A stretch of 28,312 nt of DNA from a virus (lineage: Duplodnaviria; Caudoviricetes). Shown piece after piece: positions 118-28,312 of the stretch. The notes under the pieces were generated by a model. It did no database searches and was not told the origin of the DNA. It was given only the letters and a program-made list of their open reading frames with translations. Each line of letters begins with the position of its first letter. Positions within the stretch are counted from its first letter, which is position 1. A program made the position numbers and the translations under genes. Location of the stretch: positions 1 to 28,312 of the IMG/VR virus record IMGVR_UViG_3300027863_000141. The stretch is one strand, 5' to 3'.

Positions 118-195
118 TGGTCGGGGCGAGTGGATTTGAACCACCGACCTCCTGGTCCCGAACCAGGCGCTCTAGCCAGGCTGAGCCACGCCCCG
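118..195 (-). tRNA. tRNA-Pro(CGG), full length with encoded CCA; probable attachment site
   Basis: Reverse complement CGGGGCG...CCTGG-TTCGGGA-CCAGG...GGTTCAAATCC...CGCCCCG-A-CCA folds as a canonical cloverleaf with anticodon CGG. Confidence 0.97.
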
Positions 196-1134
196 ATGAA
201 TCAACAACTTAACGGGAAAACAACCGGAACTGAGCCTCTGGTCAACAGCTCACCAGTTCCCAACTCGTCAACCAGCATACCAACCTTTGAAGCCTACGTG
301 CAAGACAGGAAGTACACCCGCAACGTCTCCCCCAAAACCCTGCTCTGGTACGAAGACGTGTGGCGGTCGTTCGGCCCCTACCTCCGCACAGACTCCGCTC
401 TGTCCGTCAAGGAGTCGGTCAGGGAAGGGGTCCAGGCCCTCCTGGCTAAGGGAATAAAGCCGGTCTCCATCAACTCCTGGCTCACCGGCGTTCGTGCTTT
501 CGCCCTATGGCTATGGAACGAGGGCTACCTGAAAGAGAAACCCAAAGTTCAACTACTCAAGTGCGAACAGAAGGTCATCCAAACTTTCACGCCCGAACAG
601 TCAAAGCTCATCATCGGCTACAAGGGCAAGAAGGTCTCCAGCCGACGCGCGCATGTGGTCGCCTGCGTCATCCTGGACTGCGGGCTCCGCATCTCTGAAG
701 TGCTCACGCTCCGCAAGGAGTCCTTCGACTTCAACAACTTGGTCATCAAGGTCAAGGGCAAGGGCAACAAGGAACGGCTGGTGCCAATGTCGTTTGAACT
801 CCGCAAGGTGGTTTGGAAGTGGAGTGCCAAACAGGAACACGCCCTGATGTTTGGAACCCGAAACGGGACGCCGATGACGCCCCGGAACTTCCAGCGGGAC
901 TTCGCGCGGATCTGCAAGGAACTGAAGATTGCCGGCGTCCGGTGCTCTCCACACACGCTTCGCCACACATTTGCTGCAAGCTACCTGCGGGCCGGGGGCA
1001 ATCTCTTTTACCTCTCCAAAATCCTCGGGCACACATCCGTGAAGACCACGGAACGGTACCTGCAAAGCTTGAACGTAAGCGACTTCCAGGCGGTGCATAA
1101 TGGCCTCTCCATATTGAATCGAGGCCAGGGATGA
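196..1134 (+). CDS. int: Tyrosine recombinase/integrase, short XerD-like type without an obvious arm-binding domain
   Basis: Catalytic motifs GLRISE (R), KGKGNK (K), HTLRH (HxxR), LGH, TERY (Y). ATG at 196 chosen because the GTG at 130 lies inside the tRNA antisense; start uncertain. Confidence 0.93.
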   Translation: MNQQLNGKTTGTEPLVNSSPVPNSSTSIPTFEAYVQDRKYTRNVSPKTLLWYEDVWRSFGPYLRTDSALSVKESVREGVQALLAKGIKPVSINSWLTGVRAFALWLWNEGYLKEKPKVQLLKCEQKVIQTFTPEQSKLIIGYKGKKVSSRRAHVVACVILDCGLRISEVLTLRKESFDFNNLVIKVKGKGNKERLVPMSFELRKVVWKWSAKQEHALMFGTRNGTPMTPRNFQRDFARICKELKIAGVRCSPHTLRHTFAASYLRAGGNLFYLSKILGHTSVKTTERYLQSLNVSDFQAVHNGLSILNRGQG

Positions 1135-1169
1135 TAAAACTCCGGCAGATTCGGTATGATGCTGTATGG

Positions 1170-2120
1170 ATGCGTGTTCCCCACCCAATCCCGTACCAAG
1201 GCAGCAAGCGGGCGTTAGCTCCACTCATCCTCAAGTACTTCCCAGCCGACACGAAGCACCTAATCGAGCCGTTCTGCGGAGCCGGAGCAATCACCCTAGC
1301 TGCTTCATTGCACAACAGGGCAAAAACGTTCTCCATGAACGACATCAACGCCCCATTGATGGCGTTGTGGGATAGAATCATCAACGCGCCTGAAGACACC
1401 GCTGATGCCTACGCGAAAATGTGGAACGCACAACTCGGCAACGAACGCAAGTATTACAACCAGGTAAGGGAAGAGTTCAACAAGACGAAGCGGCCAGAAC
1501 TCCTGCTCTATCTACTGCTGCGTTGCGTGAAAGCAGCGGTGCGTTACAACTCCGATGGGGACTTCAACCAAAGTCCGGATAACCGACGGCTGGGCATGAG
1601 GCCAGACACGTTGCGCCGCCACATCCTGGTGGCTTCCAACCTGCTAAAAGGTAAAACCAAACTCCAATCGAAAGACTACCGGGATATTCTGGCGGAGGCG
1701 GAAGGCAAGGACTTGGTCTATATGGACCCTCCCTACCAGGGCGTGTGCAAGAACCGGGACAACCGCTACTTCGGAACCTTCAATAGCGCAGAGTTCATCA
1801 CGTCTCTGGCTGAATTAAACCGACGCGGCATTTCCTATATCCTGAGCTACGACGGCAGGACCGGGAACAGGGTGTACGGCAAGCCAATGCCGGAATCGCT
1901 GGAACTGACGCACTTGGAAATTGAAGTGGGCAGGTCGTCTCAAGCCACACTCAACGGAGAGGAACACGTCACCGTGGAATCCATCTACCTGTCTCCGGCT
2001 TTGTCCCACCGGCTAGGCGGAGTGAAGAAAGCCCAGTTGACTGCGGCTCCTAAACAGCATAATCTGTTGGATTGCCAAACCAATCTAGAGAACTGCCAAG
2101 AGCGTTTATCGAACGTCTAA
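1170..2120 (+). CDS. N6-adenine DNA methyltransferase, D12/Dam class; M subunit of a type II R-M system
   Basis: PYQGSK, EPFCGAG (motif I), NDIN, YMDPPY (motif IV), LSYD; start could be 1131 or 1170. Confidence 0.93.
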   Translation: MRVPHPIPYQGSKRALAPLILKYFPADTKHLIEPFCGAGAITLAASLHNRAKTFSMNDINAPLMALWDRIINAPEDTADAYAKMWNAQLGNERKYYNQVREEFNKTKRPELLLYLLLRCVKAAVRYNSDGDFNQSPDNRRLGMRPDTLRRHILVASNLLKGKTKLQSKDYRDILAEAEGKDLVYMDPPYQGVCKNRDNRYFGTFNSAEFITSLAELNRRGISYILSYDGRTGNRVYGKPMPESLELTHLEIEVGRSSQATLNGEEHVTVESIYLSPALSHRLGGVKKAQLTAAPKQHNLLDCQTNLENCQERLSNV

Positions 2121-2788
2121 AACGCGTGACGGCCAAGAGGCCGCGCACCGTTATTGACCATATCCTTGAGCATGGCTTCATCACCACCGACGAACTGAAG
2201 ACGAAGTACGGCTACAACCATCCGCCGCGAGCGGCTATGGACGTAAAGGACCAGGGCATCCCCCTGGTACGCTTCAAAGTCACTAATGAACAAGGACGTT
2301 CCATAGCCGCCTACCGCTTTGGGGACGTGACCAACATCCGCAAAGGATTCGAAGGCAGGCAGGCTTTCTCAAAAGCGCTCAAGGAACAGGTCAGCGCAGC
2401 TAACGGAGGAAGATGCAATATCTGCCTCTCCGAACATGAGCTACAAATCGACCACCGTGTGCCCTACGTCGTGGCCGGCGATGTTGGGTTCGCCGATAAG
2501 GACGTTACCGAGTATATGCTCTTATGCCGGATGTGCAATCGAGCGAAATCCTGGTGCTGCGAGCATTGCCCCAATTGGTTGGAGTTGAAAAAGGCCGCAG
2601 TCTGCCAGACCTGCTATTGGGCAAGTCCGGGAAAATATAGCCACGTGGCTATGAGAAACGAAAGACGCCTGGATATAGTCTGGAGTGAAGGTGAAACGGA
2701 AGTCTATGACCGACTCAAACAGAAGGCGGATGCAGTTAGTCAAGAAATGCCGGATTTTGTTAAACGCATCCTTCGGAAAACAATCTAA
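2072..2788 (+). CDS. HNH type II restriction endonuclease, SphI-like (probable site GCATGC)
   Basis: CNIC...QIDHRVP...CRMCNRAKSW HNH/Zn motifs; HPPRAA.D.KD.G and NRAKSW.CE.CPNW...C.WASP..Y.HV match my recall of R.SphI; overlaps the MTase 3' end. Confidence 0.8.
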   Translation: MPNQSRELPRAFIERLKRVTAKRPRTVIDHILEHGFITTDELKTKYGYNHPPRAAMDVKDQGIPLVRFKVTNEQGRSIAAYRFGDVTNIRKGFEGRQAFSKALKEQVSAANGGRCNICLSEHELQIDHRVPYVVAGDVGFADKDVTEYMLLCRMCNRAKSWCCEHCPNWLELKKAAVCQTCYWASPGKYSHVAMRNERRLDIVWSEGETEVYDRLKQKADAVSQEMPDFVKRILRKTI

Positions 2789-2946
2789 TCCTTTTTCACA
2801 GCCCAAGCCATCGCAACAACCCATCCGATGAACGTCCATCCCAAGAACAGGTTGATGACGGCAATGGAGGCCGCGTTCTTCTTCTTGGCCGTGAGAGCTT
2901 GGATTGTTGGCAGGAAGTATACTCCCAACACGAAAATGGTCAGCAT
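2785..2946 (-). CDS. Superinfection immunity protein (T4 Imm-like), 53 aa; not in ORF track
   Basis: MLTIFVLGVYFLPTIQALTAKKKNAASIAVINLFLGWTFIGWVVAMAWAVKKD; YFLP...NLFLGWT.IGW signature. Confidence 0.88.
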   Translation of the reverse strand: MLTIFVLGVYFLPTIQALTAKKKNAASIAVINLFLGWTFIGWVVAMAWAVKKD

Positions 2947-2957
2947 TGTAGTTCGAG

Positions 2958-3104
2958 TTAATGTTTAGAGCTTTTATCTGATACCGTTAGGTACCAGTCG
3001 ATAAATTTAGCAAGAGCATGGACCGTCTTAATTTTAGGGTCCTCCAAGGCGTGCTTAAGGGCGCGTTTAATTCGCTGTCCTCTTGGAGTGATAGCCTTTT
3101 CCAT
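2958..3104 (-). CDS. Small hypothetical protein
   Basis: MEKAITPRG... fills the operon between DUF1064 and Imm genes. Confidence 0.5.
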   Translation of the reverse strand: MEKAITPRGQRIKRALKHALEDPKIKTVHALAKFIDWYLTVSDKSSKH

Positions 3105-3462
3105 AGTGGTAAGTCTGTTTACTGGTGATAACGACATAACTGATATTAGGATAATTATCTTCAAACAAGTTTCTCTTTAGCCTCCACACTTCAGTTGCCA
3201 CCCCTTTCGCTTCCCACACTTCCTGGTGGCCATCTTTGAACGTCAACAAGAAGTCAACGCGATGACTACATATCTTCCCGCCGTTCTTACCATACAGTAC
3301 AAACGTCCGTTGCGGTTCCACGCTAACAACTTCCCCTGCCTTGCGTAAGACCTCAATCTCTTGGGCAACTCCAGCTTCAAGCTTTGAGTCATACTTCCTG
3401 CCATTCCAGACCGTTTTCTTTGCGCCATACTTATTTGCCCTTCTTTGATACCAGACCATCAA
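3067..3462 (-). CDS. DUF1064-family phage nuclease
   Basis: NKYGAKKT...YDSKLEA...VDF...EAKGVAT motif pattern. Confidence 0.85.
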   Translation of the reverse strand: MMVWYQRRANKYGAKKTVWNGRKYDSKLEAGVAQEIEVLRKAGEVVSVEPQRTFVLYGKNGGKICSHRVDFLLTFKDGHQEVWEAKGVATEVWRLKRNLFEDNYPNISYVVITSKQTYHYGKGYHSKRTAN

Positions 3463-3625
3463 GGTTGTTGTTAATTGTGTTCTGCTCCACCTTCAAACCA
3501 GCCCAGACGGCAATCCAGAAAGAAATAACTATCCATAGCAGGATGCCGATGGCGGCGAGAAGTAGGATGATGGCAAAGATTTGGCTAACGATTTGGCTGG
3601 CAAGTGCGGGGGTGTCGGCGGTCAT
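3431..3625 (-). CDS. Small membrane protein
   Basis: Long hydrophobic segment; start overlaps the upstream stop. Confidence 0.65.
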   Translation of the reverse strand: MTADTPALASQIVSQIFAIILLLAAIGILLWIVISFWIAVWAGLKVEQNTINNNLDGLVSKKGK

Positions 3626-4014
3626 AGTTTTACTTCATTAGGGTCTGGGATAATAATGTTCAATTCCTCTGCCGCCCATTGGCGGACTTTCTCGATGTAG
3701 GTAATGAAATCTATTGTGTCTAGTCTTTTTGTTGTGGCAGGTGCGACCAAGTTGCCGATAAAACGTTTAGGAGAAAACTGGTACTTGAGGGCGATGTGTA
3801 CTTCCTCGGGGTCGGCTCCAGTATGGTCTGCGATTAGTTTGTAGCACACGCCCCATAGATAACGATTTTGCTCATTGCTGCGGCGCCGGGTCTGCTTTTC
3901 CACGGTCACATTTACCCGTTTGCCGTTAAGGGTGTGGAGGTGGGCGATGAACTCGGGCTTGTTGTCAAGCAGAAGTTTGCCGTCTTGGATTGCGCCGGGG
4001 AAAGTGGGGGTCAT
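3622..4014 (-). CDS. NinB/Orf-like recombination accessory protein
   Basis: RRSNEQNRYLWG...EEVH..LK...TTKRL...F..YIEKV..WAAE...IPDP pattern. Confidence 0.75.
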   Translation of the reverse strand: MTPTFPGAIQDGKLLLDNKPEFIAHLHTLNGKRVNVTVEKQTRRRSNEQNRYLWGVCYKLIADHTGADPEEVHIALKYQFSPKRFIGNLVAPATTKRLDTIDFITYIEKVRQWAAEELNIIIPDPNEVKL

Positions 4015-4355
4015 TGCTGCGGGGTTAATGCTTTGCTGATGGTGTTGTCTGCGAAGTTGAAGTTTTCAAACGGCCCGAACTCTTTCCCAGCATATGGTCC
4101 CTTCAGGAACCTAATCTTAAACGCTGTATCCCAACTCTCAACAGTGAACATCTCAAACGGAAAACCAACAATTATCTCTATCTGTGGCTCAAAGTCCGGA
4201 CCACCCATCACCATCCACTTTTCCAAAAAGTGCAACGATGTAATTTCGTCTTTCCATTCGCCCGTATAGTTATACTGCGTGCGCCCACAGAACCCACATT
4301 GCCGGTAGTGATATTTTAAATTGTTCTGCCAATATTTGCAGTCGTGACGGCTCAT
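4011..4355 (-). CDS. Hypothetical protein with N-terminal Cys/His cluster
   Basis: HDC...CGFCG; ATGA overlaps at both ends. Confidence 0.7.
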   Translation of the reverse strand: MSRHDCKYWQNNLKYHYRQCGFCGRTQYNYTGEWKDEITSLHFLEKWMVMGGPDFEPQIEIIVGFPFEMFTVESWDTAFKIRFLKGPYAGKEFGPFENFNFADNTISKALTPQQ

Positions 4356-4537
4356 TGGATTGTCTTATATGAATGATTAAAGTAAACATCCAGGGCAGTC
4401 CTGCGGAACAGCCAATTACGAAATCCCGGTAGGTGCCTATAAACCAACACCGTCTCGCCTTGATTTATGTCTATAACATCACCTGGATAAATAATGCATG
4501 TTTCCTTATCGGAGTTTGTATGAAATAATATTTTCAT
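4352..4537 (-). CDS. Small hypothetical protein
   Basis: Operon position, TTAAAC leader, ATGA overlap with next gene. Confidence 0.6.
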   Translation of the reverse strand: MKILFHTNSDKETCIIYPGDVIDINQGETVLVYRHLPGFRNWLFRRTALDVYFNHSYKTIQ

Positions 4538-4583
4538 TGTCGTAGTTGTTTAATGTTAATACCCACACTTAAGGGGATAGTTT

Positions 4584-5084
4584 TCATTTTGAATTGCTTA
4601 ATTGTTTTGACAGAACCCAGAACGGCTGGCTGTTCGCCTTCACCGTCTTCCAGTCCAATAACATTCCCCTGTTTGAAGCCTGGTCGCCTCCGGTCAAGTG
4701 CCGGTATAAATCTCTTTCCATGTAGCTTCCGTCTGCCCGGCGTGTTCGCTGTTTAGCGTGGTACATCTCCAAGAGGTGCTGGCGGTCAAAGACATTAAGG
4801 AAGAGGCGGCCATAGACGAACTTGTGAGCCTTGCTGTTTCTGATGGCTTTTTCTTCTACAAAGATGTTGCCCGTGAATGCTGAACCCCAGTCCATCTTCA
4901 CTTCCAGGAGTAGGGGGTTGTCTTCCGGCTGGCCGACGTAAATATCAAAGTCTTCTCTGCGTGGGTCTTCGGTGCCGGAAAAAGGATTGAAGCCAACCGG
5001 AATACCTTGGGAGTAGAGGTGCTGAACTATCAGCTCTTCAAGGGGTGCGCCTCGCTGGTCGCGGTCGCGGTAAAAATCTGACAA
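4584..5084 (-). CDS. PD-(D/E)XK nuclease-fold protein
   Basis: E...FDI...LLEVKMD...TGNIFVE motif. Confidence 0.7.
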   Translation of the reverse strand: MSDFYRDRDQRGAPLEELIVQHLYSQGIPVGFNPFSGTEDPRREDFDIYVGQPEDNPLLLEVKMDWGSAFTGNIFVEEKAIRNSKAHKFVYGRLFLNVFDRQHLLEMYHAKQRTRRADGSYMERDLYRHLTGGDQASNRGMLLDWKTVKANSQPFWVLSKQLSNSK

Positions 5085-5112
5085 GAGAGTGGGGTTAAAA
5101 ATCTCTACTTAA

Positions 5113-5155
5113 ATTATCTCAAAGAAAAAACTAACGCGCAAACGAGTTATCCACA
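5113..5155 (-). promoter_or_regulatory. Sigma70-type promoter with upstream DnaA box
   Basis: TGTGGATAA (5155-5147), TTGCGC (5141-5136), 17 nt, TGA-GATAAT (5118-5113). Confidence 0.7.
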
Positions 5156-5156
5156 G

Positions 5157-5348
5157 TCAAGCGCTTAAAGTGTGCGCCAACTTTTCTCTATAGGTCTTAA
5201 CTGCTTTTTGGTATCCCTTACCAGTTTCTACTTTGCCGTCTTCCTTCCTTTCCTTCCTTCCTTCTCTTCCTTCCTTCAGGTTCCATCTGGTTTCCATTTG
5301 GAAGACAATGGTTTCCAAGTACTCCCAAGAGTCCTTCGGGTGCGCCAT
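5157..5348 (-). CDS. Small charged hypothetical protein
   Basis: ORF track; overlaps upstream gene. Confidence 0.45.
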   Translation of the reverse strand: MAHPKDSWEYLETIVFQMETRWNLKEGREGRKERKEDGKVETGKGYQKAVKTYREKLAHTLSA

Positions 5349-5596
5349 TTCTCGTTCTTCAGTAGCTTAAACAATTCCTTTGTCCGTGGTACACACTTCT
5401 TCCGCCCACAGAGGTCGCATACTTCCTTGTAATGAAAGCTCTTCCCTTGCGCCTTCCCGTTGTGGACCCACTTCTCATAGTGGAAGGTTGGGTGCTCACA
5501 CTTTGGTTTCCGCTGACGGGGCGGCTTGGGTGGTTTTAAGTCGGACTCGGTTAGAGGGTGTTCGTTGAGTTGCTGGATGGTGTCTAATATGCTCAT
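5276..5596 (-). CDS. Hypothetical Zn-binding protein
   Basis: CEH...CDLCG; starts 2 nt after the initiator stop. Confidence 0.65.
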   Translation of the reverse strand: MSILDTIQQLNEHPLTESDLKPPKPPRQRKPKCEHPTFHYEKWVHNGKAQGKSFHYKEVCDLCGRKKCVPRTKELFKLLKNEKWRTRRTLGSTWKPLSSKWKPDGT

Positions 5597-5598
5597 AT

Positions 5599-6057
5599 CT
5601 ACATGCTTTTAATTGGTGTTCTTGTTTTCAAGTTATTTAACTCCCCTTTTCTTTTGTATAGTTTCTTTTGTATAGTTTCTTTTGTATGTCCCTGTTTAGG
5701 GACATGGTAATTCCCTGTTTGGGGACTACCTACGTTCCCTGTTTGGGGAATAATCCAAGTATGATAATTTTTGTTAAAATGGTAGGCTGTCTCGGTCTTG
5801 GACATCTTAGACTTGTCAATAAGCTTCTTTTTTACCAGTTTATTAATAGACCGACAAATGTGTTTTTTGTCAAGCTGCGTCCCGTTCACAAACTGCGATA
5901 ATGATATTACGTCCGTGGACTTTTTCCAACCATATGTTTTTCTTAAAAGGTAATGCAAAATCCGCCACTCATAGGGCGAGAGGTTGAGCATAGCAAACGC
6001 CTCCATTAGTTCGTTGGCTATCGGCGTGTAGCCATTTTCTTTTTGTGGGCTTGCCAT
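5599..6057 (-). CDS. Lambda O-like replication initiator (N-terminal DNA-binding domain, short)
   Basis: MASPQKENGYTPIANEL...RKTYGW.K..D.ISLSQF...NKNY..W pattern; contains iterons. Confidence 0.88.
   Translation of the reverse strand: MASPQKENGYTPIANELMEAFAMLNLSPYEWRILHYLLRKTYGWKKSTDVISLSQFVNGTQLDKKHICRSINKLVKKKLIDKSKMSKTETAYHFNKNYHTWIIPQTGNVGSPQTGNYHVPKQGHTKETIQKKLYKRKGELNNLKTRTPIKSM
5648..5750. repeat. Probable replication origin: three quasi-palindromic iterons plus AT-rich repeats
   Basis: TCCCTGTTT(A/G)GGGA at 5689, 5712, 5736; TTTCTTTTGTATAG nearly x3 at 5648-5687; same layout as lambdoid ori inside O. Confidence 0.85.
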
Positions 6058-6189: not shown

Positions 6190-6219
6190 AGCATAAAGGA
6201 TTGGCCGGACATCTGTCAA
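6190..6219 (-). promoter_or_regulatory. Leftward promoter for the replication operon
   Basis: TTGACA (6219-6214), 18 nt, TATGCT (6195-6190). Confidence 0.7.
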
Positions 6220-6229
6220 ATCACCTACC

Positions 6230-6272
6230 TGTGGATAACTGGCCTTGCCAGAAAATATAGATGTGCCACAAT
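6230..6272 (+). promoter_or_regulatory. Rightward promoter with upstream DnaA box
   Basis: TGTGGATAA (6230-6238), TTGCCA (6245-6250), 16 nt, TGC-CACAAT (6267-6272). Confidence 0.65.
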
Positions 6273-6315: not shown

Positions 6316-6735
6316 ATGCAAGCTGAAGTTAAACGGCTTGTAGAGCTACGCCGCCAGATTGCGGAATACGATGAAGCCTATGAACAGGCTGTATCTCCCC
6401 TAAAGCTGGAACGGGACGCTCTGCAAACCAAGATAACCGAGGAGCTAAAAATGGCTGGTGTGTTATCCCAGCGGTTCCAAGATGCTACGGTTACCAGGTC
6501 AGTCCGCAAGACTGTCCAAGTGCTTGACGAAGCGAAAGCCGTGGCTGCCCTAAAAGCCAAAGGGTTGACCGACTACGTTTCCGAAAGCATCAACAAGCTG
6601 TTCTGGGACAGTGCCGCCAAAGAGATTGCCAAATCCGGCAAGACTGATATTGACGGCCTGGCTATCCAGGAAAAGGAATACCTCTCCGTCCGTGAAAGCG
6701 ACAAAGAGGAACGTAGAAAAGTAACGGTGGACTAA
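6316..6735 (+). CDS. Coiled-coil phage protein, Gp157/Gam-like
   Basis: N-terminal coiled coil, C-terminal IDGL...E.E.LSVR; sits before SSB. Confidence 0.65.
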   Translation: MQAEVKRLVELRRQIAEYDEAYEQAVSPLKLERDALQTKITEELKMAGVLSQRFQDATVTRSVRKTVQVLDEAKAVAALKAKGLTDYVSESINKLFWDSAAKEIAKSGKTDIDGLAIQEKEYLSVRESDKEERRKVTVD

Positions 6736-6758
6736 ACCACCAGAAACATAACTGGCAT

Positions 6759-7415
6759 ATGCCATTAGATCCAAAACAAACCGTTTTCAAGGAGCCATCC
6801 GGAAAAGACTGGGCGCTCCTTCCAGAAGACACCTACCAAGTGCAAATCCAGGACATCACCCAAGATGTGACCGAATGGAAAGGCGAAAAGAAAGACGTTC
6901 TCAAGTTCAAGTTCGTCATTATCGAGCAGCACCAGTTCGAAGAAAATGGACGCAAGTGCTATACCTACGGCAGAGTCTTGTTCAAACGCGGGTCCATAGT
7001 CCAGCCGATTCCTTCCGCGAACAACAAAGACCCGCTTACCTACAAAATCTGCTCGGCGGTTGCCGGCAGGAAACTTACCGAAGAGCAGGGTAAGAAAATC
7101 ACCATCGCGGACCTCAACCGCCTAATTGGAAAACAACTCCGAGTGGGCGTTTCCATCAGCGCGCCGAAGCCGGACGGGAAGCAATTCAATAATGTGGACA
7201 CCTTCTACTCCATCAAGCAAACACTGCCACCGTTCGATGAGAATAAGGTGGTCAAGGATGAGGAACCGGCGCATTCGCCGGCAGCTCCTGCCATCCCGAC
7301 CCAGCCTGACGGTGTGGTTTACCAGCCGGTCGCCCCAGTCGCCGCACAGATGCCTGCTGCTGAATCCGGCGAACTGGAAACCGAAGACATCAATGTCGAG
7401 GATATTCCGTTTTAG
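6759..7415 (+). CDS. Single-stranded DNA-binding protein, DUF669-like
   Basis: LLPEDTY.V.I...LIGK.L.V...FNNV; acidic tail ending EDIPF. Confidence 0.8.
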   Translation: MPLDPKQTVFKEPSGKDWALLPEDTYQVQIQDITQDVTEWKGEKKDVLKFKFVIIEQHQFEENGRKCYTYGRVLFKRGSIVQPIPSANNKDPLTYKICSAVAGRKLTEEQGKKITIADLNRLIGKQLRVGVSISAPKPDGKQFNNVDTFYSIKQTLPPFDENKVVKDEEPAHSPAAPAIPTQPDGVVYQPVAPVAAQMPAAESGELETEDINVEDIPF

Positions 7416-7526
7416 ACACCATGCCCCTGACTCTGGTCGGGGGCTGAATTGGGCAGGCGTGGCGGACAACACGCGAAGGGCCGCAAAGTAGCTACCCGCC
7501 TGTCCTATTTAGCAAAACAAACCCGC

Positions 7527-8087: not shown

Positions 8088-8104
8088 ATATTAATAAAAC
8101 AACT

Positions 8105-20369: not shown

Positions 20370-20604
20370 TACGTGCGGGGTTTAAGTGTTTTGATTTGGC
20401 TCCGTAGTTGGTCCAGAGGCGAATCCGCCGTTTCGGCGGATGTTCCAGGCTTGAGCACGCCTTCCTTTTCCAAAAGGGAAATAAGCTGCTCGAAGTAGGA
20501 AATCACCTCGTCTATGTAAAGCTGGCGGATCTCGGAAAGAGCGAAGCCGTAGCGGACCATGAATACTACGGTTGCCCTAAGCGCCTTCAGCTTTTCGGTT
20601 GCTG
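20369..20604 (-). CDS. Tail assembly chaperone, -1 frameshift extension (GT)
   Basis: -1 frame after the A9 run reads TATEKLKALRATVVF-MVRYGF... in frame with ORF 20369..20560. Confidence 0.85.
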
Positions 20605-20955: not shown

Positions 20956-20976
20956 AAGTGATATCTGGCTTAGTTA

Positions 20977-21711
20977 TCAGGAAATTTGCTGTTCATCAGT
21001 AACAGAGACGAAGTAACCCTCCAAGGTGATAGGCAGGGTAGCCACATCGGCAGCCTTGTCCGAAGCGAAGTCGATTGCCGGCGCGTTGATGTTCGTGCAG
21101 TCCTTGATATCAACCTGGAACACCTTGCCGTTGGCATCGGTGTTGATGACGCGCAAGGCTTTCAATGTCTTGGTGCCGGAGTTGTTGAAGGTCAGTTTCT
21201 TGGAAGCGTTCGGAGTGTAAGTATAGCCTGCGTTAGCGGTAAAGCTGCCGGTTCCTATTTTTGTCAGACAGGTGTAGCCATTTTGGTCAACGAACACTTC
21301 GTAATCTGTGCCTTCGACTTTACCGGTAACGGTGAGGGAAGCAACCCTGGTACCGTCGCCGTTCTTGTTGGCAAGGCGGGTGATGGTGTCAGCGGCGACT
21401 GTGACGGATTCGGCGGAAACTACCACCGGCGTGCCGGCGACGTTCTGCAACGTAACCAAACCGCCGTCAAACTTGGACAGGTTTGTCAGGTTGATTTCAG
21501 TAAGGACAAAAGAGAACTCCACCTTATCGCCGTCCGAGAATTGCTTGATTTCAGGAGCGTTGTCAAAGGTGATGGTTTGGGTTTCCGCTTTGGAAGTAAG
21601 CTTGGGCGTGCGGATAGCGCCGATATCAACAAGGGTGGCGAAATCGTCGCCGATTTGAACTTTTACCGAACCCTTTCGGATGGCTTCGGGTTTTTGGACT
21701 GTGGTTTGCAT
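20977..21711 (-). CDS. Major tail (tube) protein
   Basis: Position; QTTVQ...IR.GS...DIGA...F.L.EI...Y.YTP pattern. Confidence 0.85.
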   Translation of the reverse strand: MQTTVQKPEAIRKGSVKVQIGDDFATLVDIGAIRTPKLTSKAETQTITFDNAPEIKQFSDGDKVEFSFVLTEINLTNLSKFDGGLVTLQNVAGTPVVVSAESVTVAADTITRLANKNGDGTRVASLTVTGKVEGTDYEVFVDQNGYTCLTKIGTGSFTANAGYTYTPNASKKLTFNNSGTKTLKALRVINTDANGKVFQVDIKDCTNINAPAIDFASDKAADVATLPITLEGYFVSVTDEQQIS

Positions 21712-21716
21712 AGTTG

Positions 21717-21929
21717 TTAGTTAAGGATTGTGAAGCTGGGATTTTGTTCCTCGGCAACCCTCTTAGCATAGTCGGAATCGACCCAGATCCGGCTCTTGGC
21801 TGCTATGAAGGTGCCGTCCGGAAGAAAGGTGTTGCGGACGCATAAAAGCTCCACTTGCCTTTCTTTCCCGGCTTCGGAGTTAATTGTTTGAACTTTTTCA
21901 ATAGTATTGGGTTTGACATTCTTGGCCAT
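21717..21929 (-). CDS. Small hypothetical protein
   Basis: Fills the gap between terminator and tube genes. Confidence 0.7.
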   Translation of the reverse strand: MAKNVKPNTIEKVQTINSEAGKERQVELLCVRNTFLPDGTFIAAKSRIWVDSDYAKRVAEEQNPSFTILN

Positions 21930-21932
21930 AGG

Positions 21933-22325
21933 CTAGTAGTTAATGGTGACTTCGACGGCGAAGTACCAAAGCTTGGCATCGCTGTCATAAAGGGCTTGCC
22001 TGCCCTCAAAAGCGGAATAGGTGATGGGGTACAGGCCTCCAAGCTTGGAGGCAGACAAGTCGTTGAGGCAGTCGTCCACATCGTTGGCAAGGTCGCGCGC
22101 TTTCTCAAAGGTGTCGCCGAAGCAATTGAGCTGGAAAAGAGATTGTCTCGCGGTGGGATAAGTGAGACTCTGGCTAATTTCTGTATACGTTATTGCATAG
22201 CCACTTGTCAAAGAAAAGCCATCGGGAAGACGTAATGGGTAGATATGGTATGCACCCCCGTTTATGGTTTTTGCTGCTATTCCCGCGTGTGCTTTCAGCG
22301 CGGCGTATAGTCCTTCTTCAATCAT
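21933..22325 (-). CDS. Tail terminator/completion protein (DUF3168/gp17-like)
   Basis: MIEE.LY..L...IYP..LP...ITY..IS...FQ..C...A..LA..V...L. Confidence 0.85.
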   Translation of the reverse strand: MIEEGLYAALKAHAGIAAKTINGGAYHIYPLRLPDGFSLTSGYAITYTEISQSLTYPTARQSLFQLNCFGDTFEKARDLANDVDDCLNDLSASKLGGLYPITYSAFEGRQALYDSDAKLWYFAVEVTINY

Positions 22326-22654
22326 GCGAGTTTGCTTAGTTTGTCTTTGATGAATTCCAATCCTTTTTCCTTCATCGTTTCGGCGGCTTTGCGAATCATT
22401 GCCCTGGGCTCCATGCGGGATGTTCCGAACTCCACGAAGGGCGCGTATTCCACGTTGTTGGCAAGTTCGGCCTTCAGGAAGCCTACCCTGCGGCCTGTCA
22501 TTGCGTTCCTGAGCCGGCCCGTTATCACCGGAGTGTTCCTTTTGGCTTCGGTCTCAAACATCAGGGCAAGGGCCGGCATCAATTCATCAACCGCCTGGGC
22601 GGTCTTCCGCTCGGCGTTAATTTTTTGCACGAATTTGACGGTGCTGCTGAACAT
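22322..22654 (-). CDS. HK97 gp10-family protein
   Basis: AK..TPV.TG.LR...NVEYA.FVEFGT.RM. Confidence 0.9.
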   Translation of the reverse strand: MFSSTVKFVQKINAERKTAQAVDELMPALALMFETEAKRNTPVITGRLRNAMTGRRVGFLKAELANNVEYAPFVEFGTSRMEPRAMIRKAAETMKEKGLEFIKDKLSKLA

Positions 22655-22981
22655 CTATTTGAAAGAAACTTTATTGGCGCCAACTTCAATGTGGTGGCCA
22701 GAGCTATCGGGGTAGGCAATCACCACGTCGTAGGTTTCGCCGTTAAGGACAATGCGGTCGGCTTCGGTGATATCGGTGCCCGTGAGGAAGTAGAATTTAA
22801 AATCGGCAACGGTGTAGTGGCCCAAGGTTCCAAACACCTGCGGGTTCTTCTGGGCAACCATCCGGGTCTTTACGTTGGTCGCCTTGTCCACCCATGCGCT
22901 CGAAACTTGCCCGGTCGCCGTTTGGCTGTCGGTTTTGGACTGTATGGAGCAAAGCTGGTTCAGTAGATTCTCAAATGACAT
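22655..22981 (-). CDS. Head closure/stopper protein (SPP1 gp16-like)
   Basis: DI...DRI...GETY.V...HHIEV; position. Confidence 0.82.
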   Translation of the reverse strand: MSFENLLNQLCSIQSKTDSQTATGQVSSAWVDKATNVKTRMVAQKNPQVFGTLGHYTVADFKFYFLTGTDITEADRIVLNGETYDVVIAYPDSSGHHIEVGANKVSFK

Positions 22982-22986
22982 GGCCG

Positions 22987-23628
22987 TTAGAGGGTTATAA
23001 TTCCAACGCTGGGCCGGCCGTCGTCCTTGATGAAGGGTTTTAGTAGGTCTTCAATTCCGAGGGCGTGGGCAATGTCTTGTACCTTGACGTAGCTGGCCTG
23101 GTAGTCGCCAAGCGTTTCGCTGGTCAGCTCTTTGATATCTTTGTCTCCGACCGATTCCTTGATGATTCCGCCCACAAGCTTCGTAGCCGCAAGCTCAATA
23201 ACGGCTGGCACGGCGGCACCATAGCCGAATTTCGCCGTCACTTCCACGTTCTGCTGGCCATCGGTAAATTGGTAAAAACTTTGCGTAATCACCTGGCGGG
23301 AGTTGCGGGCCAATCCGGTCTTTAATTCAATGGCAGTCTTTGGCAGCCTGTTCGCGGGGTACGTAAAATAGTCGTTGGCTGAAATCTCAACCCCGTCAAC
23401 GACCAGCTTTTGGATTTCAATAAAGTCGTCAACGGTCAGGCGTTCGTTTCCGTTACCGTCAAATGTTCTGGTCTCAAAGTTGGTCGGCGGGGTGAAGAAC
23501 CTGCCGGTGAACTTTTCAATGTAATCGGAAACCGCTTCTATCCACGCCGTCACGGAAGCGTCGAGGGCGGCGTTTATGGTGATGGCAAGATAGTCTTCAA
23601 CTTTTGCCTTGGTGGTAAATTGTGGCAT
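22987..23628 (-). CDS. Head-tail adaptor (gp15/gp6-like)
   Basis: I.A.S..IE..TGR.F...FDG.G...G.QNV.V....GY...VP..I..A...SE.LGDY. Confidence 0.85.
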   Translation of the reverse strand: MPQFTTKAKVEDYLAITINAALDASVTAWIEAVSDYIEKFTGRFFTPPTNFETRTFDGNGNERLTVDDFIEIQKLVVDGVEISANDYFTYPANRLPKTAIELKTGLARNSRQVITQSFYQFTDGQQNVEVTAKFGYGAAVPAVIELAATKLVGGIIKESVGDKDIKELTSETLGDYQASYVKVQDIAHALGIEDLLKPFIKDDGRPSVGIITL

Positions 23629-23640
23629 TGCTTTTGGGGG

Positions 23641-25281
23641 TTAAGATTTGGGCGTATACAGGTCTTTGGGAGTAGACCTGGATGTGTGGGTGAACTTCTT
23701 GGCTGGAGTATACAGGTCTCTGGCGGTGTAGGAAAGTATCCGGCTCAGGGCCGTGATGAATTCCTGCGCTGTGGCAAGGTCTGAAACCGCAAGGCGGGCA
23801 AGTATGGACAGGGCATCGGTCGCACTTCCCGTTTCCCTGACCAGCAGGGCTGTGAGGATGGCAAGCGTTTCTGTGGCGTGGCCGGTGTCCGTGGCCGCGA
23901 TTCTGCGGATGATATTTAGAACGTCGGCTCCGGCCCCGGCGTCGCCTTGTTGGATTTTCGCTACGACGCGGGCGATGTCTGCGCTAAAACCTGAATCGGA
24001 GAGTAGCAGTCTGGTTAACACGTTCATTGCCTCGCTGCCAACTGCGGTATCCGTAAGGGAGAGTCGGAACAGCAAGAGCAGGGCGTCCACTCCGGCCCCG
24101 TTGTCTGACACGCTCTTTTGCAGGAAGCTGGCGGTTGAAGAAACGGCCTCTGTGCCGCTTCCTGTTTCGTGGACGGCTGTCTTGGCCTTGACGCCCAGAA
24201 TCTCGCTTCCTAAGCCCGTTTCTGAAGCGTAAACGCGGCTTAAAAGGGCTATGAGGTCGGCTGCAAGGCCGGAATCCGAGTTCAGAACGCTTACCAGGGC
24301 GGAAACCTGGTCTGCGCCGCTCCCGGCGTCTGAAAGTGTCAACCGGGTGAGCAGGGCAAGCGCTTCGGCTCCCTGGCCTGTCTCATGGACAGCCAAGCGG
24401 ATAAGGGCTGAAATAAACTCCGCTCCGGCTCCCGCGTCGTGCTGCATGATTCTGGCAAGGGCGTTTACGGAATCGGTAGCAAGCCCGCTGTCCGAACGGC
24501 TGATGCGGAAGAAAAGGGAAACCAAGTCTGCGCCGGCGCCTGTTTCGTGGAGTGCAAGGCGAATAAGGGCTGTCAGCGCTTCGGTGGCTGTCCCTGTGTC
24601 ATGCTGGGCCACTTTTGCAAGCGCGCTGATGGTCTCCGCTGCCGTCCCGCTGTCGCTCCGGGTAATCTTGGCAAATACGCTTACCACGTCGGTAACAACG
24701 CCGCTGTCTGACTGGGCGAGCCTGATGAGCATGGCCACGGCGTCGGCTGCGGAGCCGGTATCATGCAAAGCCATCCTGGTGAGGATGGAAACAAGCTCGC
24801 TACCTGTCGCTGCATCGCTTCGCGCCACGCGAATGAGCACACTTTGTAATTCTGCCCCGTGGCCGGTGTCCAACAGGGCCATCCGAGCAAGAGTCGTGAG
24901 CGTTTCGCTTGCGTGCCCCGTGTCGGAAAGGGCGGCGCGGATGAGCATGGAGAGCAAGTCATTGCCGCTTCCAGCCTCATGCAAAGGAATTCTGGCTAAA
25001 GAAGAAAGAAGCTCGGCTGCTGAGCCTGCGTCTGACGGGGTGATTTTGTGAAGAACGGCGGAGATGTCTGCTCCTGTGGTGGTGTCAAAAATTCCAATAT
25101 GTGAAAGCAAAGCGATGAGTTCAGCCCCCACGCCTGAGTCGGTACGGTTTATCTTTGCCACCACGCCAGCCAGAGAGTCGGAGCCAGAGCCGGTGTCTGA
25201 GATAGTGACGGGGGTATTGCCTCCGGCAACGGTTCCAAGAAACCCTATTAACTTGATGGTTAAACCTGATGGTGGTGGCAT
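23641..25281 (-). CDS. Repeat protein with 27 tandem ~18-aa units; putative fibre scaffold
   Basis: Consensus [S/H/T][D/E]xGx[G/A]x[D/E]x4LxRx3; duplicated DLYTP at the C-terminus. Confidence 0.85.
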   Translation of the reverse strand: MPPPSGLTIKLIGFLGTVAGGNTPVTISDTGSGSDSLAGVVAKINRTDSGVGAELIALLSHIGIFDTTTGADISAVLHKITPSDAGSAAELLSSLARIPLHEAGSGNDLLSMLIRAALSDTGHASETLTTLARMALLDTGHGAELQSVLIRVARSDAATGSELVSILTRMALHDTGSAADAVAMLIRLAQSDSGVVTDVVSVFAKITRSDSGTAAETISALAKVAQHDTGTATEALTALIRLALHETGAGADLVSLFFRISRSDSGLATDSVNALARIMQHDAGAGAEFISALIRLAVHETGQGAEALALLTRLTLSDAGSGADQVSALVSVLNSDSGLAADLIALLSRVYASETGLGSEILGVKAKTAVHETGSGTEAVSSTASFLQKSVSDNGAGVDALLLLFRLSLTDTAVGSEAMNVLTRLLLSDSGFSADIARVVAKIQQGDAGAGADVLNIIRRIAATDTGHATETLAILTALLVRETGSATDALSILARLAVSDLATAQEFITALSRILSYTARDLYTPAKKFTHTSRSTPKDLYTPKS

Positions 25282-25303
25282 TACGTGTTTGCGTGTTACA
25301 AGT

Positions 25304-26431
25304 CTATGGAGTAATTAGTCTTGTATTGATGAGGTCATTGATAACGACAGAGTCAGTGTTAACAGTATCTTCAAATAAACCGGTGCTGTTAACAGGTATT
25401 GAAATAATTTGATTGCCATTAGTGGCATTCTTGCGGAACGCAAAAGTGGAATTAGAACTCAATCCGCTGTTGGCGGAAATATAAATTTGCATATTGGAAG
25501 CCGTAAACGCCATGGGGCTTATTGATTGGCCACCATAGTATGGGTCGCCAGCAAATGCATAACTTGTGGTAGTCGCGGGGTTTTGTAAAAGGCCTTCCGA
25601 TTCCGAAGCGATTGTATTGAACTTATTATTGGTTGTGTACATCTCAACACCCAACACATCAATCCTGGAAGTAGAAGCTGACGCCCCTCCCGTGATTGAG
25701 AAGTTAATCAAGTCGCCCGAAGCTACCGAATCGGTATTCGTCGTATTCTCAAATAGTCCTGTTGCACTCGCCCCACGGCTGATTACCACATTGCCGTTGA
25801 CTCCGTTGATGCGAACCCTAAATGTATCCGTTACATTCCTTGAATTACTGCTGGTATACAGGCACATGTTTTTCAAGGTGCCAGCCGTTCTACACTTGAA
25901 TTGTGCGTATGCCTCTGTCGCGGTGCCCAAAACATATGTACTTGAACCAGGATAACCACCAAGTCCGCAGTAAACAGTTGAACTATTTGGGCCGGACATA
26001 TCCCACCCGGCACTTCCCTGTGCAATGTATTTTGTCATCGTGCCAGATGTTGCCTCAAAGACTGTGTTGACACAAGAACAATAAATGCTGTAGGAGGAGC
26101 CTACAACTGCCTTGATGGCAAGATAGTCTCCAGCAGCAACAGAATCGGTATGGATGGTATCACTATAATTTCCAGTTGTTCCGGCCGGGATGGAAATTGT
26201 CATATTGCCATTTGCCGAGTTCTTGCGTGATGTGAACGTGGTAGACGACGTAGTGCTATTAGTAGTGCACTTAATTGACAAGTTGCTGAGTGTTCCGGCG
26301 GATTGAAACCTTACGCGCTTATTCGCTTCTGTTGAGTCAACAAAGCATGGACAATTACCAACGGAAATATAATACGTTGTTGCTGGAGGGAGAAACACAT
26401 ACATGCTCCCAAATTGTACTGCCTTGGCCAT
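25304..26431 (-). CDS. Ser/Thr/Asn-rich protein with three tandem beta domains; putative fibre tip
   Basis: Three copies of T..N.....NS....F..R.N..NGN..IS.....TG...D...TDSV...D; lower GC than neighbours. Confidence 0.8.
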   Translation of the reverse strand: MAKAVQFGSMYVFLPPATTYYISVGNCPCFVDSTEANKRVRFQSAGTLSNLSIKCTTNSTTSSTTFTSRKNSANGNMTISIPAGTTGNYSDTIHTDSVAAGDYLAIKAVVGSSYSIYCSCVNTVFEATSGTMTKYIAQGSAGWDMSGPNSSTVYCGLGGYPGSSTYVLGTATEAYAQFKCRTAGTLKNMCLYTSSNSRNVTDTFRVRINGVNGNVVISRGASATGLFENTTNTDSVASGDLINFSITGGASASTSRIDVLGVEMYTTNNKFNTIASESEGLLQNPATTTSYAFAGDPYYGGQSISPMAFTASNMQIYISANSGLSSNSTFAFRKNATNGNQIISIPVNSTGLFEDTVNTDSVVINDLINTRLITP

Positions 26432-26433
26432 TG

Positions 26434-26832
26434 TCAGAATGCTTTATGTGCTCGAAAAACGCTGTCAGCAAAGCTTTGCAGCTCGGCGCGGCGGACAGTA
26501 GAGAGCTTGGGAGCCGTCACTTTCAGGTTTCGGTCCTTGTCAAACGACCATTGCACCTCGCCGTCTTTGATGACCGAATTGCCATTAGCATCAACCTGGG
26601 CAAGCTCAGGAAAAGATTCCGCTATGCGGGCTAGGGTGATGTTCTTGCCCTGGTTCTCTTTCACTATGGTCGCGTAGTGCGCCACGTCGTTGGGTGTGCT
26701 GGCATGCGCCGGGCATTTGGTTATCACCTTGGACACGGTATGCACTCTCTGGTCCTGGGGAATGCTGTCGTCCCATTTGTATTCCAAAACGCACCCGCAA
26801 GTGTCGGGGCTCCATTGTGTGGTTTGAATCAT
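26434..26832 (-). CDS. Hypothetical Cys/His protein, possible fibre chaperone
   Basis: WSPDTCGC...CPAH; stop is 2 nt before the next start. Confidence 0.7.
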   Translation of the reverse strand: MIQTTQWSPDTCGCVLEYKWDDSIPQDQRVHTVSKVITKCPAHASTPNDVAHYATIVKENQGKNITLARIAESFPELAQVDANGNSVIKDGEVQWSFDKDRNLKVTAPKLSTVRRAELQSFADSVFRAHKAF

Positions 26833-26933
26833 AGGGGTTGTGAAATGAATAATAACAGAGCACCGCTAACGACGTTGACGGCGGTTTAGGCTGAGCGGGG
26901 CCAAGAATAGACCGCCCGTGTCGGCGTGTGCTG

Positions 26934-27097
26934 TTAGCTCAAAGTGATGTCTAAGGTCTTAGAATGAACGTTCCTATGACACTTCAGACACAAGGTCATT
27001 CCATTATCTAAGGCAAATCTCAACTCTGGGAAGTGAGCAAACTCCTTTGTAGTTGTGCTTGAGGCGATACTTTCCAGTGTTTTCCGAGAGTTGTCAT
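26934..27097 (-). pseudogene. Internally deleted NUMOD3-HNH homing endonuclease
   Basis: [11 protein letters not shown] in one frame; [28 protein letters not shown] in another. Confidence 0.82.
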
Positions 27098-27103
27098 CCC
27101 GGA

Positions 27104-27616
27104 CTAACTAAGTGAAATGTCTAAGCTAAGCTCCCAAGTTTGGCCGGAAGTCTTCGTACCCTGGCTGGATACTTTGCGGTTCAGCATGATACCACCGCTG
27201 GAAGCGTTGAAAACGCCGAACTCGTTCCAGGCGAAGTTGGCGTCAGTGCCGCCAAAGGTGGATTTCCAGGTGGCTTTCTGGCTGGTGCCATAGGTCGGGT
27301 AGGAAGCGTCCATGGCCTTGCGGAGCTTGTTGGTCGCGGCCTGAAGGTCGGTTTGGGTTGCGGCTTCGGCGGTGGAGCTGTCGCCTACGCCCAAATAGGC
27401 GTTGGTGTTGTCAAACTTCGTACCGCCCGATGAACAGAGAATTGTCCAAAGCTGGTTGATGCCAGCATTGAGCAGCATGTTCATGTCAAACTTGGAGACT
27501 TCGTAAGGAGAGGTGTGGGTGCATACCGCGTCAGGGCCGCACGCCTCGCAGTTCTTGTGCTTGGCGATGGCCCACTGGGTGCGGTAATGCGCCTTGTCAG
27601 TGGATAGTTTTTCCAT
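27104..27616 (-). CDS. Beta-rich virion protein, putative fibre subunit
   Basis: N.LLN.G...YLGVG...TA....QTDL...F....ANF.W.EFGVFN...G.MLNR; start reassigned to ATG at 27616. Confidence 0.8.
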
Positions 27617-27629
27617 TGAAGTGGTTGGA

Positions 27630-27773
27630 TTACTGTTCTTCTTCTGCGGGAGCGTTAAGGCGGGCCTCAAGCTCCTTGGCGCTCTCGATGAACTTGAGCG
27701 CGACTTCGAGCGGCACCTCGCGGTAGGCGTTGGCTGTCGGGTCGAAGATGGAAACCATTTGCTGTTTTGGCAT
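27630..27773 (-). CDS. Small protein, 47 aa; not in ORF track
   Basis: MPKQQMVSIFDPTANAYREVPLEVALKFIESAKELEARLNAPAEEEQ fills the gap exactly. Confidence 0.75.
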   Translation of the reverse strand: MPKQQMVSIFDPTANAYREVPLEVALKFIESAKELEARLNAPAEEEQ

Positions 27774-27777
27774 GGGT

Positions 27778-28125
27778 CTATTTCTTAACGACTAAGGTGG
27801 CGAGGATTTCCTCGGCGGGTTTGATTTTGCGCTTGCCGCCCTTCACGGTTTCCGTGGCGACGCCGTAGCGCTTGGCAATTTCAGCCAAGATGACTTCGGG
27901 GATTTCATCCTCGTAAACTTCCACGTAGCTCATGGGCGACTTATCCAGGCGGGCGATTCTCTCGCCGGTCTGGTACAGGCCGGGCTTCCAGGTCTCGGTT
28001 TCTGAGACGTAGCTCTCAACCTTGAGCCAGTAGAAATAAAGGCCCTTGGGGGCTTTTGTTTTAGGAGCCTTGGTCGGCTGCTCTACGCCTTCGGCAGACG
28101 GCTCCTGTTTGGGTTGTTTTGTCAT
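27778..28125 (-). CDS. Hypothetical protein downstream of capsid gene
   Basis: ORF track; A/C-rich leader. Confidence 0.75.
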   Translation of the reverse strand: MTKQPKQEPSAEGVEQPTKAPKTKAPKGLYFYWLKVESYVSETETWKPGLYQTGERIARLDKSPMSYVEVYEDEIPEVILAEIAKRYGVATETVKGGKRKIKPAEEILATLVVKK

Positions 28126-28151
28126 GTTTGGGTTCGCTTAATGATGGAAAG

Positions 28152-28176
28152 AAGGCCGGGGTATTAAGCCGGCCTT
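28152..28176 (-). terminator. Hairpin after capsid gene (weak terminator/stabiliser)
   Basis: AAGGCCGG/CCGGCCTT 8-bp stem followed by CTTTCC on the minus strand. Confidence 0.6.
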
Positions 28177-28188
28177 TAGTCAAACGAT

Positions 28189-28311
28189 TTAGGTGAGGCC
28201 TACCAAAGCGCCGTGGTCGGTGCCAATGCCTTCAACCGCCAAACCAAACTTGCCTTGCAAGGTCTGCTTGTTTTCACGGCTGTTGCACGGCTCCGGAGCG
28301 AAGCGAAGTTC
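28189..28311 (-). CDS. Major capsid protein, C-terminal fragment
   Basis: ELRFAPEPCNSRENKQTLQGKFGLAVEGIGTDHGALVGLT*; resembles HK97-fold (DUF5309-like) C-termini, followed by a hairpin. Confidence 0.6.
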   Translation of the reverse strand, partial: ELRFAPEPCNSRENKQTLQGKFGLAVEGIGTDHGALVGLT

Positions 28312-28312
28312 A

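Follow-up and report, generated by a model that had tools for sequence, protein, structure and literature searches.

The provirophage Mavirus is stored in the genome of the eukaryote Cafeteria and multiplies at the expense of a giant virus. The lambdoid phages of bacteria keep the cI and cro genes in the gap between divergent operons. According to the available text of the respective publications, most phages use canonical Shine-Dalgarno (SD) sequences (PMC7162821), prophage CGP3 is silenced by its own small nucleoid protein CgpS and not by cI (PMC5137423), and decoy or hyperparasite roles have been proposed for phages that are linked by spacers to cells both inside and outside the candidate phyla radiation (CPR) (PMC10746230, PMC12960796). 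The present analysis concerns the complete IMG/VR record IMGVR_UViG_3300027863_000141, a contig of 28,312 nucleotides that is classified as viral and is referred to here as the window. It represents the integrase-side two thirds of a tailed-phage provirus; the right end of the contig precedes the capsid, portal and terminase genes, and about 15 kb of the element (head, terminase and far end) lie beyond it.

The window belongs to a hybrid provirus family that is real, recurrent and apparently undescribed, and in which the genes follow two translational grammars. The best explanation of this composition, to which we give slightly less than an even chance, is a provirus that is stored in an acidobacterium and is likely lytic in an SD-less cell, probably a patescibacterial epibiont.

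Two translation signals in a recurrent provirus family

A strong SD was defined by one rule for every genome, a pairing to the anti-SD with dG <= -7 kcal/mol; since the gene starts were computed by a simple gene caller and have no experimental confirmation, the resulting SD fractions are approximate. A strong SD precedes four of the 49 called genes of the window, namely those starting at 9074 (-10.8), 9262 (-13.2), 11622 (-11.8) and 8803 (-12.6), the last of which had been missed in the original prediction. Perfect GGAGG motifs had been claimed upstream of 9074, 9262, 11622 and 11806, and all four were present among 49 hand-picked open reading frames (ORFs); the ORF at 11806, however, begins with ACG and not with ATG, the start codon of its homologues in G936 and L319. 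The virion block (12230-28312) has a strong SD at none of its 23 genes, an upstream G content of 13% and the motif TTAA in 48% of its leaders. The integrase (-4.1), the methyltransferase (-5.9) and the restriction endonuclease (-0.1) lack a strong SD in the window copy and were therefore assigned to the carrier module by kinship. The original prediction had placed the integrase and the restriction-modification (R-M) genes on the carrier side; their kinship, and not their leaders, favours this placement.

The split that had been proposed for the window was seen there and is sharp across eight elements, the window and seven relatives. Among the genes whose best match lies in acidobacterial chromosome or island stretches, 14 of 22 have a strong SD, compared with 0 of 19 genes that match module-free phages only (Fisher p 9e-6, calculated on recurring gene families and thus on rows that are not independent); the other 368 genes include 49 with a strong SD. 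In the virion blocks the fraction ranges from 0 to 9%. The two grammars follow ancestry across the window and its seven relatives, and the SD-led genes whose origin could be assigned belong to acidobacterial islands.

The SD-less leaders contain a positioned motif. TTAA starts at -22 to -8 in 69 of the 177 virion genes of the eight elements, with 37 occurrences at the peak of -16/-15, and in 60 of the 69 cases it is not the stop codon of the upstream gene. The rate is 6.6% in control windows, 3/208 in host genes and 37/108 in module-free phages.

A second feature of the elements is the DnaA box. The sequence TTATCCACA occurs at 5147 (plus strand), 6230-6238 (minus) and 12218 (plus) of the window, where 0.11 copies are expected and where none of 100 shuffles reached three. 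The original prediction described three promoters with DnaA boxes; the three boxes are perfect, but a good sigma70 match (TTGACA-18-TATGCT, 10/12) was detected only beside the box at 6230. Across the family, 32 boxes were counted in 288 kb (2.2 expected), 25 of which are intergenic and nine of which lie beside a sigma70 match of at least 9/12, as compared with 4.9% of the intergenic positions. Three whole acidobacterial genomes contain 1, 7 and 1 copies of GTTATCCACA, and the other GTTATCCACA boxes of G054, G495 and G195 were rejected as element remnants (seven regions). A link of such promoters with Patescibacteria was suggested in the original prediction; a literature search found no paper on DnaA-box promoters in this group.

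IMG/VR was scanned with the integrase, DUF932 and two core genes, which yielded nine further records of this fusion (G001, G002, G006, G007, G008, G936, G937, G1022 and G1023), so that ten records including the window combine the genes of an acidobacterial island module, in interleaved order, with those of an SD-poor phage. Six of the nine are classed as proviruses, and G001, G007 and G936 hold complete gene sets (CheckV 99-100%); G006 is a fragment in which no integrase was found, and G008 has an integrase of a different type. The 292-aa core gene as query retrieved six records, four with the island module and two without it (G938 and G935, the latter complete with terminal repeats). All four records retrieved with the 166-aa core gene (4584-5084) contain integrase and DUF932, and three of the four retrieved with DUF932 have SD-less cores. 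The integrase relatives G003 and G004 are devoid of DUF932 and have ordinary leaders. Within the family the targets vary (tRNA-Pro, tRNA-Ala and tRNA-Thr), and relaxase, coupling-protein or primase domains are encoded beyond the terminase in G001, G007, G008 and G937. In a DUF932 tree of 18 rows (G273 was left out as short) the hybrids are intermixed with islands, a single clade being not rejected (p-AU of 0.33). Viral scans with a single integrase and with the lysozyme gave no matches, a metagenome scan yielded one weak match apart from the record of the window itself (L169), and no description of the hybrid family was found in the open literature, subscription papers being outside the search; PMC10783764 and PMC12142844 had no bearing on the family.

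The window is a single metagenome contig of about 5x depth. A chimeric assembly, which the original prediction had named among the findings that would refute it, has a practically negligible probability. The first 10 kb are present in four sequencing runs, two of which (X1 and X2) may be the source. In the rhizosphere run X3, which comes from a different study and a different year, one contig of 43,793 nt is colinear with positions 295-14147, the range covered by this comparison, in eight pieces of 95-99% identity. Single pieces bridge the integrase and the early genes (295-3607), the SD-led block and the lysozyme (8343-10777), and DUF932, the tRNAs and the late genes (11270-13086), while the accessory genes between the pieces are replaced. 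The module junctions are thus spanned by an independent contig, which refutes a chimera for 295-14147, and nine other records have the same layout. The X3 contig ends in the 3' half of tRNA-Pro (window 111-168, 57 of 58 letters); the element is therefore about 43.7 kb long, with this tRNA half as the core of the attachment (att) site. For the near-identical integrase, lysozyme and 292-aa proteins, the longest contig listed is 45,835 nt in each case, presumably the same contig in view of the equal size, and for more distant homologues it is 52,458 nt in each case. A weak signal from X4 (share 0.08) consists of 150-250-nt pieces at a depth of 2-3 over both modules.

Capsid, portal and terminase genes are present in the relatives. 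The capsid leaders lack an SD in 7 of 7 cases, with the relative L001 standing in for the window and with an uncertain start in G002. Since only the capsids of G002 and G007 align with each other among these seven, at least six virion lineages are represented, all drawn from the SD-less pool. A comparison of nine virion genes with L002 gave dN values of 0.13-0.33 and dS values of at least 1.3, four of them saturated; the virion genes are under purifying selection. A phage satellite of the PICI or P4 type was rejected in view of the tail genes in the window and the complete virion sets of the relatives. Another explanation holds that acidobacterial mobilisable islands captured phage DNA of SD-less neighbours in one direction, as passengers or domesticated parts, and that the hybrid makes no virions. 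The chromosomal remnant in G054, the ordinary island of G457 with its single SD-less and box-led tail-fibre-chaperone gene and the ACG start at 11806 are in line with such a capture. We nevertheless consider it improbable, given the complete gene sets of G001, G007 and G936, the purifying selection, the interleaved gene order that is fixed across elements, and the near-identical copies (97-99%) from separate studies with swapped accessory genes.

The acidobacterial carrier and a possible second cell

Judged from sequence comparisons, the carrier is an acidobacterium. The tRNA-Pro and the left flank of the window were recovered (Table 1) in a search over one class, to which an 'Acidobacteriia' record belongs and for which 401 genomes were covered. 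In the family of G195, comprising 201 genomes, window DNA was matched in 31, mainly at the DUF932, R-M and integrase genes, and the one named integrase homologue belongs to the Bryobacteraceae. At the end of a contig with rpsL, rpsG and fusA (names read from the sequences), G495, the one genome of its genus, contains an integrase of the same family, a cargo gene similar to R-M genes and a copy of the core gene 4584-5084 (85% identity). A decayed copy with a broken integrase, a core-gene fragment, a tRNA and a DnaA box is located beside purC in G054. The tRNA target, the flank and the chromosomal relatives are thus acidobacterial, as are the integrase, R-M, DUF932 and 8444-8803 genes, which supports the predicted storage of the virus in the genome of a conventional bacterium of the Acidobacteria type. 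The integrase P0001 was matched at E<=1e-60 in 2 of the 401 genomes, with six candidates scored per genome, and a scan of the genome collection with the integrase alignment was dominated by generic integrases (best 33%) and gave no patescibacterial genome. The one acidobacterial 16S 3' end that was seen retains the anti-SD (ACCUCC).

Lysis in a second cell is favoured because of an exclusivity maintained under selection: at least six capsid lineages are joined to the acidobacterial module, all with a positioned motif that genes of the carrier hardly ever use, and none of the eight elements has swapped in a native SD-led virion module, though such phages use the same integrase family. Swapping of virion modules, in turn, requires a cell shared with SD-less phages. 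The absent cI, the absent spanin and the mobilisation genes of the relatives are consistent with a virus that is stored in the carrier and lyses another cell. The integrase, the R-M pair, DUF932 and the coiled-coil protein would be expressed in the carrier, while the core would stay silent without cI, owing to poor initiation at its leaders and to host DnaA and/or the coiled-coil protein on its promoters. Excised DNA would enter the second cell through a relaxase/coupling-protein module, as seen in relatives, or through DNA uptake by an attached cell. There the core would be read natively, virion modules would be exchanged with resident SD-less phages and the cell would be lysed, after which virions or DNA would return to acidobacteria and integrate again. 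Every step in the second cell is one that we infer.

The proposed silent state of the core touches on another claim, that no protein repressor is visible. Searches with Pfam and PHROGs agreed with it: no repressor family was detected among the 49 window proteins, about a third of the element lying beyond the contig, nor was a repressor found among the 52 proteins of G001 and the 44 proteins of G007 that were scanned. The coiled-coil protein encoded at 8444-8803 is a candidate silencer. Homologues of its gene are present in 2 of 161 genomes of the order, with no SD-less core nearby, and on the 8.55-Mb contig of G951 the homologue lies in an island and adjoins a coupling-protein gene. The predicted structure has a pTM of 0.32 and gave coiled-coil matches only (Z up to 4.3). 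With regard to lysis, neither a spanin family hit nor a lipoprotein gene was obtained in the lysis blocks of the window and the relatives scanned; a lipobox scan delivered candidates outside these blocks, mostly in non-coding frames.

A Patescibacteria-type origin of the core is indirectly supported by two published studies and by the absence of Bacteroidota signals. A ribosome-binding site of the 'TAA' type was assigned to 353 of 946 ORFs in a Roizmanbacteria genome (10.1101/448639), and the anti-SD is present in only 48% of Parcubacteria (PMC9297842). The SD-less TTAA leaders of the hybrids were set against the published count for the one Roizmanbacteria genome. A study that does not otherwise bear on the family describes Paceibacteria prophages of about 44 kb (PMC12455944). 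The CPR link that the original prediction suggested for the lysozyme family gained no named support, with 0 of 27 homologues carrying a taxon name.

Phages of Bacteroidota are characterized by TAnnTTTG promoters and by A at -3 in their leaders. In the hybrid family, TAnnTTTG was counted 31 times versus 28 expected, A at -3 reaches 28% without any preference, and the good promoter matches are of the TTGACA type. A Bacteroidota phage was rejected on these signals, and a second cell from another SD-less lineage such as Bacteroidota appears very improbable, even though the best cultured match of the G001 terminase is to Flavobacterium phages (47%).

This terminase match is one of several findings that weigh against a patescibacterial second cell. 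All host links found are acidobacterial, including the only taxon-named homologue of a core gene (Pyrinomonadaceae) in homologue lists with very few taxon names, and the closest relatives of the early genes were found only as hybrids (4/4). Under the same rule, 64 of 236 and 61 of 208 acidobacterial chromosomal genes (27-29%) have a strong SD, so the carrier may well translate messages without one. The GC content at third codon positions (GC3) of the core tracks that of the island over eight elements (r 0.90), as would fit an element that has long resided in its carrier. Hybrids could exchange modules with one another within acidobacteria, and in G009 a DUF932 island is located next to a virion module whose leaders are host-like. 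No fold support was obtained for the coiled-coil protein as a silencer, and G936 contains a gene of the Xre-type helix-turn-helix class, a possible repressor. No relaxase or coupling gene was hit among the proteins of the window, which ends before the region beyond the terminase, and two core-gene profiles each gave 0/401 matches in the sampled Acidobacteriota genomes in a search without a positive control.

The acidobacterial host links, the many host genes without a strong SD and the covariation of GC3 would also be expected of a single host after old jumps. The cores would then derive from SD-less, probably patescibacterial phages and would now complete their full cycle in acidobacteria: unstructured, A/C-rich TTAAC leaders would work without an SD, host DnaA and the coiled-coil protein of the island would replace cI, and modules would be swapped among hybrids. 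The hybrids are also richer in GC (0.47-0.53) than module-free relatives (0.39-0.40), the host oriC (dnaA-dnaN of G054) uses the same DnaA box, and a TTAAC-like 'epsilon' enhancer is active in E. coli. A single host, however, needs at least six separate imports of capsid lineages without any swap with native SD-led modules in eight elements, and it leaves a positioned motif that is almost absent from host leaders retained even at capsid genes; moreover, no spanin was found for a diderm host. We regard this explanation as the main alternative, a substantial possibility but slightly less well supported than two cells. Returning to two cells, a more far-reaching version assumes acidobacterial tRNA-borne proviruses whose lytic programme is blocked in the carrier and which are passed to attached Patescibacteria and kill the epibiont, constituting a virophage-like defence and a DNA shuttle between two phyla; this version is rather unlikely.

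Layout of the window and observations on single loci

From left to right, the window follows a lambdoid-type order of early and replication genes, lysis genes, two tRNAs, and tail and neck genes (Table 1). The virion functions (tail, Dit, neck and adaptor) are deduced from Pfam and PHROGs matches of the 49 window proteins. A Rfam scan of the window detected only two tRNAs, and no att repeat was found within it.

Table 1. Features annotated in the 28,312-nucleotide window
Feature	Position	Strand	Remarks
3' end of a different, neighbouring island integrase (left flank, outside the element)	1..100	+	Window 2-197 is 90% identical to G195, where the stretch ends a 397-aa integrase
tRNA-Pro(CGG), integration target	118..195	-	100% identical in G350, G136, G262 and G093; 3' half (111-168) is the att core
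Short tyrosine integrase, acidobacterial family	196..1134	+	Homologues of 275-300 aa; near-identical copies differ at the N-terminus
Type II R-M pair, Dam-like methyltransferase and HNH restriction endonuclease; acidobacterial cargo	1131..2788	+	PADLOC MTase_II and REase_II; 62-66% identity to G440 and G441
SD-less early/replication operon: superinfection immunity, DUF1064 resolvase, NinB, conserved 166-aa nuclease-like gene (4584-5084), RepO	2785..6057	-	
DnaA box	5147..5155	+	
DnaA box (6230-6238), then the best sigma70-type promoter of the region	6190..6238	-	In divergent gap
SD-less early operon: Gam-like, SSB-like and two genes of no assigned function	6316..8350	+	
SD-led block: conserved coiled-coil protein (8444-8803) and two small genes	8444..9262	-	
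SD-less lysis block: small membrane protein (putatively holin-like), HNH-AP2, glucosaminidase-type lysozyme	9398..10780	-	Lysozyme with hydrophobic N-terminus
SD-led island genes: DUF932 (10897-11622) and a small conserved gene	10897..11806	-	ACG start at 11806
Phage tRNA-Met(CAT) and tRNA-Trp(CCA)	11932..12226	-	Behind a DnaA box (12218-12226)
SD-less late block: metallophosphoesterase, conserved 292-aa gene (13263-14141), tail fibre/hub, Dit, holin, tape measure, major tail, neck, head-tail adaptor	12230..28125	-	

Several loci deserve a separate description. RepO (5599-6057) comprises just 152 aa, corresponding to the N-terminal domain, and no helicase loader was recognised next to it. The small conserved island gene 11573-11806 combines its perfect SD with the ACG start codon mentioned above. 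The phage tRNA-Met(CAT) (11932-12006) shows an A1-C72 mismatch as in initiator tRNA, and its anticodon stem has two of the three G-C pairs that are usual in initiator tRNAs. The neck region (23641-25281) encodes a 546-aa low-complexity protein with repeat units of about 18 residues, of which L001 and L002 have a shorter form. In cultured phages, no match to the 292-aa protein, the lysozyme or the adaptor was found, and the major tail protein matches a Methanoculleus virus at 28%; a search of the ESM Atlas gave matches in unnamed clusters only.

Three arrangements of the att site were observed. In the first (window 118-294; G936, L282 659-800; G937, 37157-39363; G054, C2 ~578,430-579,400), the whole tRNA lies antisense and head to head with the integrase. 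In the second, that of X3, the tRNA 3' half is situated at the far end in sense to the integrase, and the near-identical integrases P0001 and P0121 have another N-terminus; since the X3 match begins only at window position 295, the att arm and the first codons have been exchanged. In the third (G495:C37, L253 5090-5200), the integrase is preceded, in sense orientation, by just the 5' half of a tRNA-Pro, which stops within the anticodon loop. In window 1-117 and in G937 (38098-39363), the tRNA next to the element is also met at its 3' end by a second, convergent island with a long integrase, indicating tandem occupancy.

Among the relatives, blocks of glycosyltransferase-like genes, read from the sequence, are located among the virion genes of module-free and hybrid podovirus-type records (G935, 16934-26423; G008, 18943-23869; G938, 31260-34737), and G935 also has a GroES/GroEL-like pair. 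The tail-fibre-chaperone gene of the ordinary acidobacterial island in G457 (G457:C1, L257 17455-19281) encodes a Peptidase_S74 protein of 578 aa and has an SD-less leader with a DnaA box upstream, thus representing the foreign grammar without a phage core. The coupling-protein gene of this island seems to resemble a gene common in Parcubacteria.

Comparison with known systems

For most Patescibacteria no host has been identified, and phages have so far been linked to two phyla by a few spacer matches. A recurring genome that joins an acidobacterial module to a module with foreign grammar offers a testable hint at a host-epibiont pair and at a phage life cycle divided between two phyla. If epibionts are indeed killed, Acidobacteriota would be named as hosts of soil and sediment Patescibacteria. 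Even a single host would imply repeated host jumps across phyla and lysogeny without an evident cI, and tools for host prediction will be split on such hybrid phages.

The phages of PMC10746230 and PMC12960796 resemble the proposed system, as far as the accessible text of both reports describes them, in that one phage is tied to a Patescibacteria cell and a conventional bacterium. Their links are spacers and the genetic code, whereas here they are a two-grammar genome and an integration module; the main text of neither report mentions Acidobacteria, and that of the first does not mention Shine-Dalgarno sequences. CgpS-silenced CGP3, as outlined in the available part of its description (PMC5137423), provides a precedent for the role proposed for the 8444-8803 protein, but no sequence or fold link of this protein to CgpS, Lsr2 or H-NS was found. 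Mavirus likewise resides in the genome of its host and would multiply at the expense of a parasite of this host; it differs in that its host is eukaryotic and the parasite is a giant virus and not a cell, the protective step being putative in the present case.

With lambdoid temperate phages that target tRNA genes, the window element shares the tyrosine integrase, the att core in a tRNA 3' half, divergent early operons, RepO, Nin-type genes, and lysis and HK97-like tail genes. Unlike in these phages, no cI/cro pair was found in the divergent gap, the integrase is situated on the far side of the Nin region, island genes occupy fixed insertion points and the core is devoid of the host translation signal. 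The integrative mobilisable elements of Acidobacteriota, represented by the islands of G457, G009 and G951, contain the same DUF932, primase-like, coupling-protein and small coiled-coil genes, which are often SD-led, but have no virion genes between them. Accordingly, the window element works like a tRNA-targeting temperate phage that is fused with a mobilisable island.

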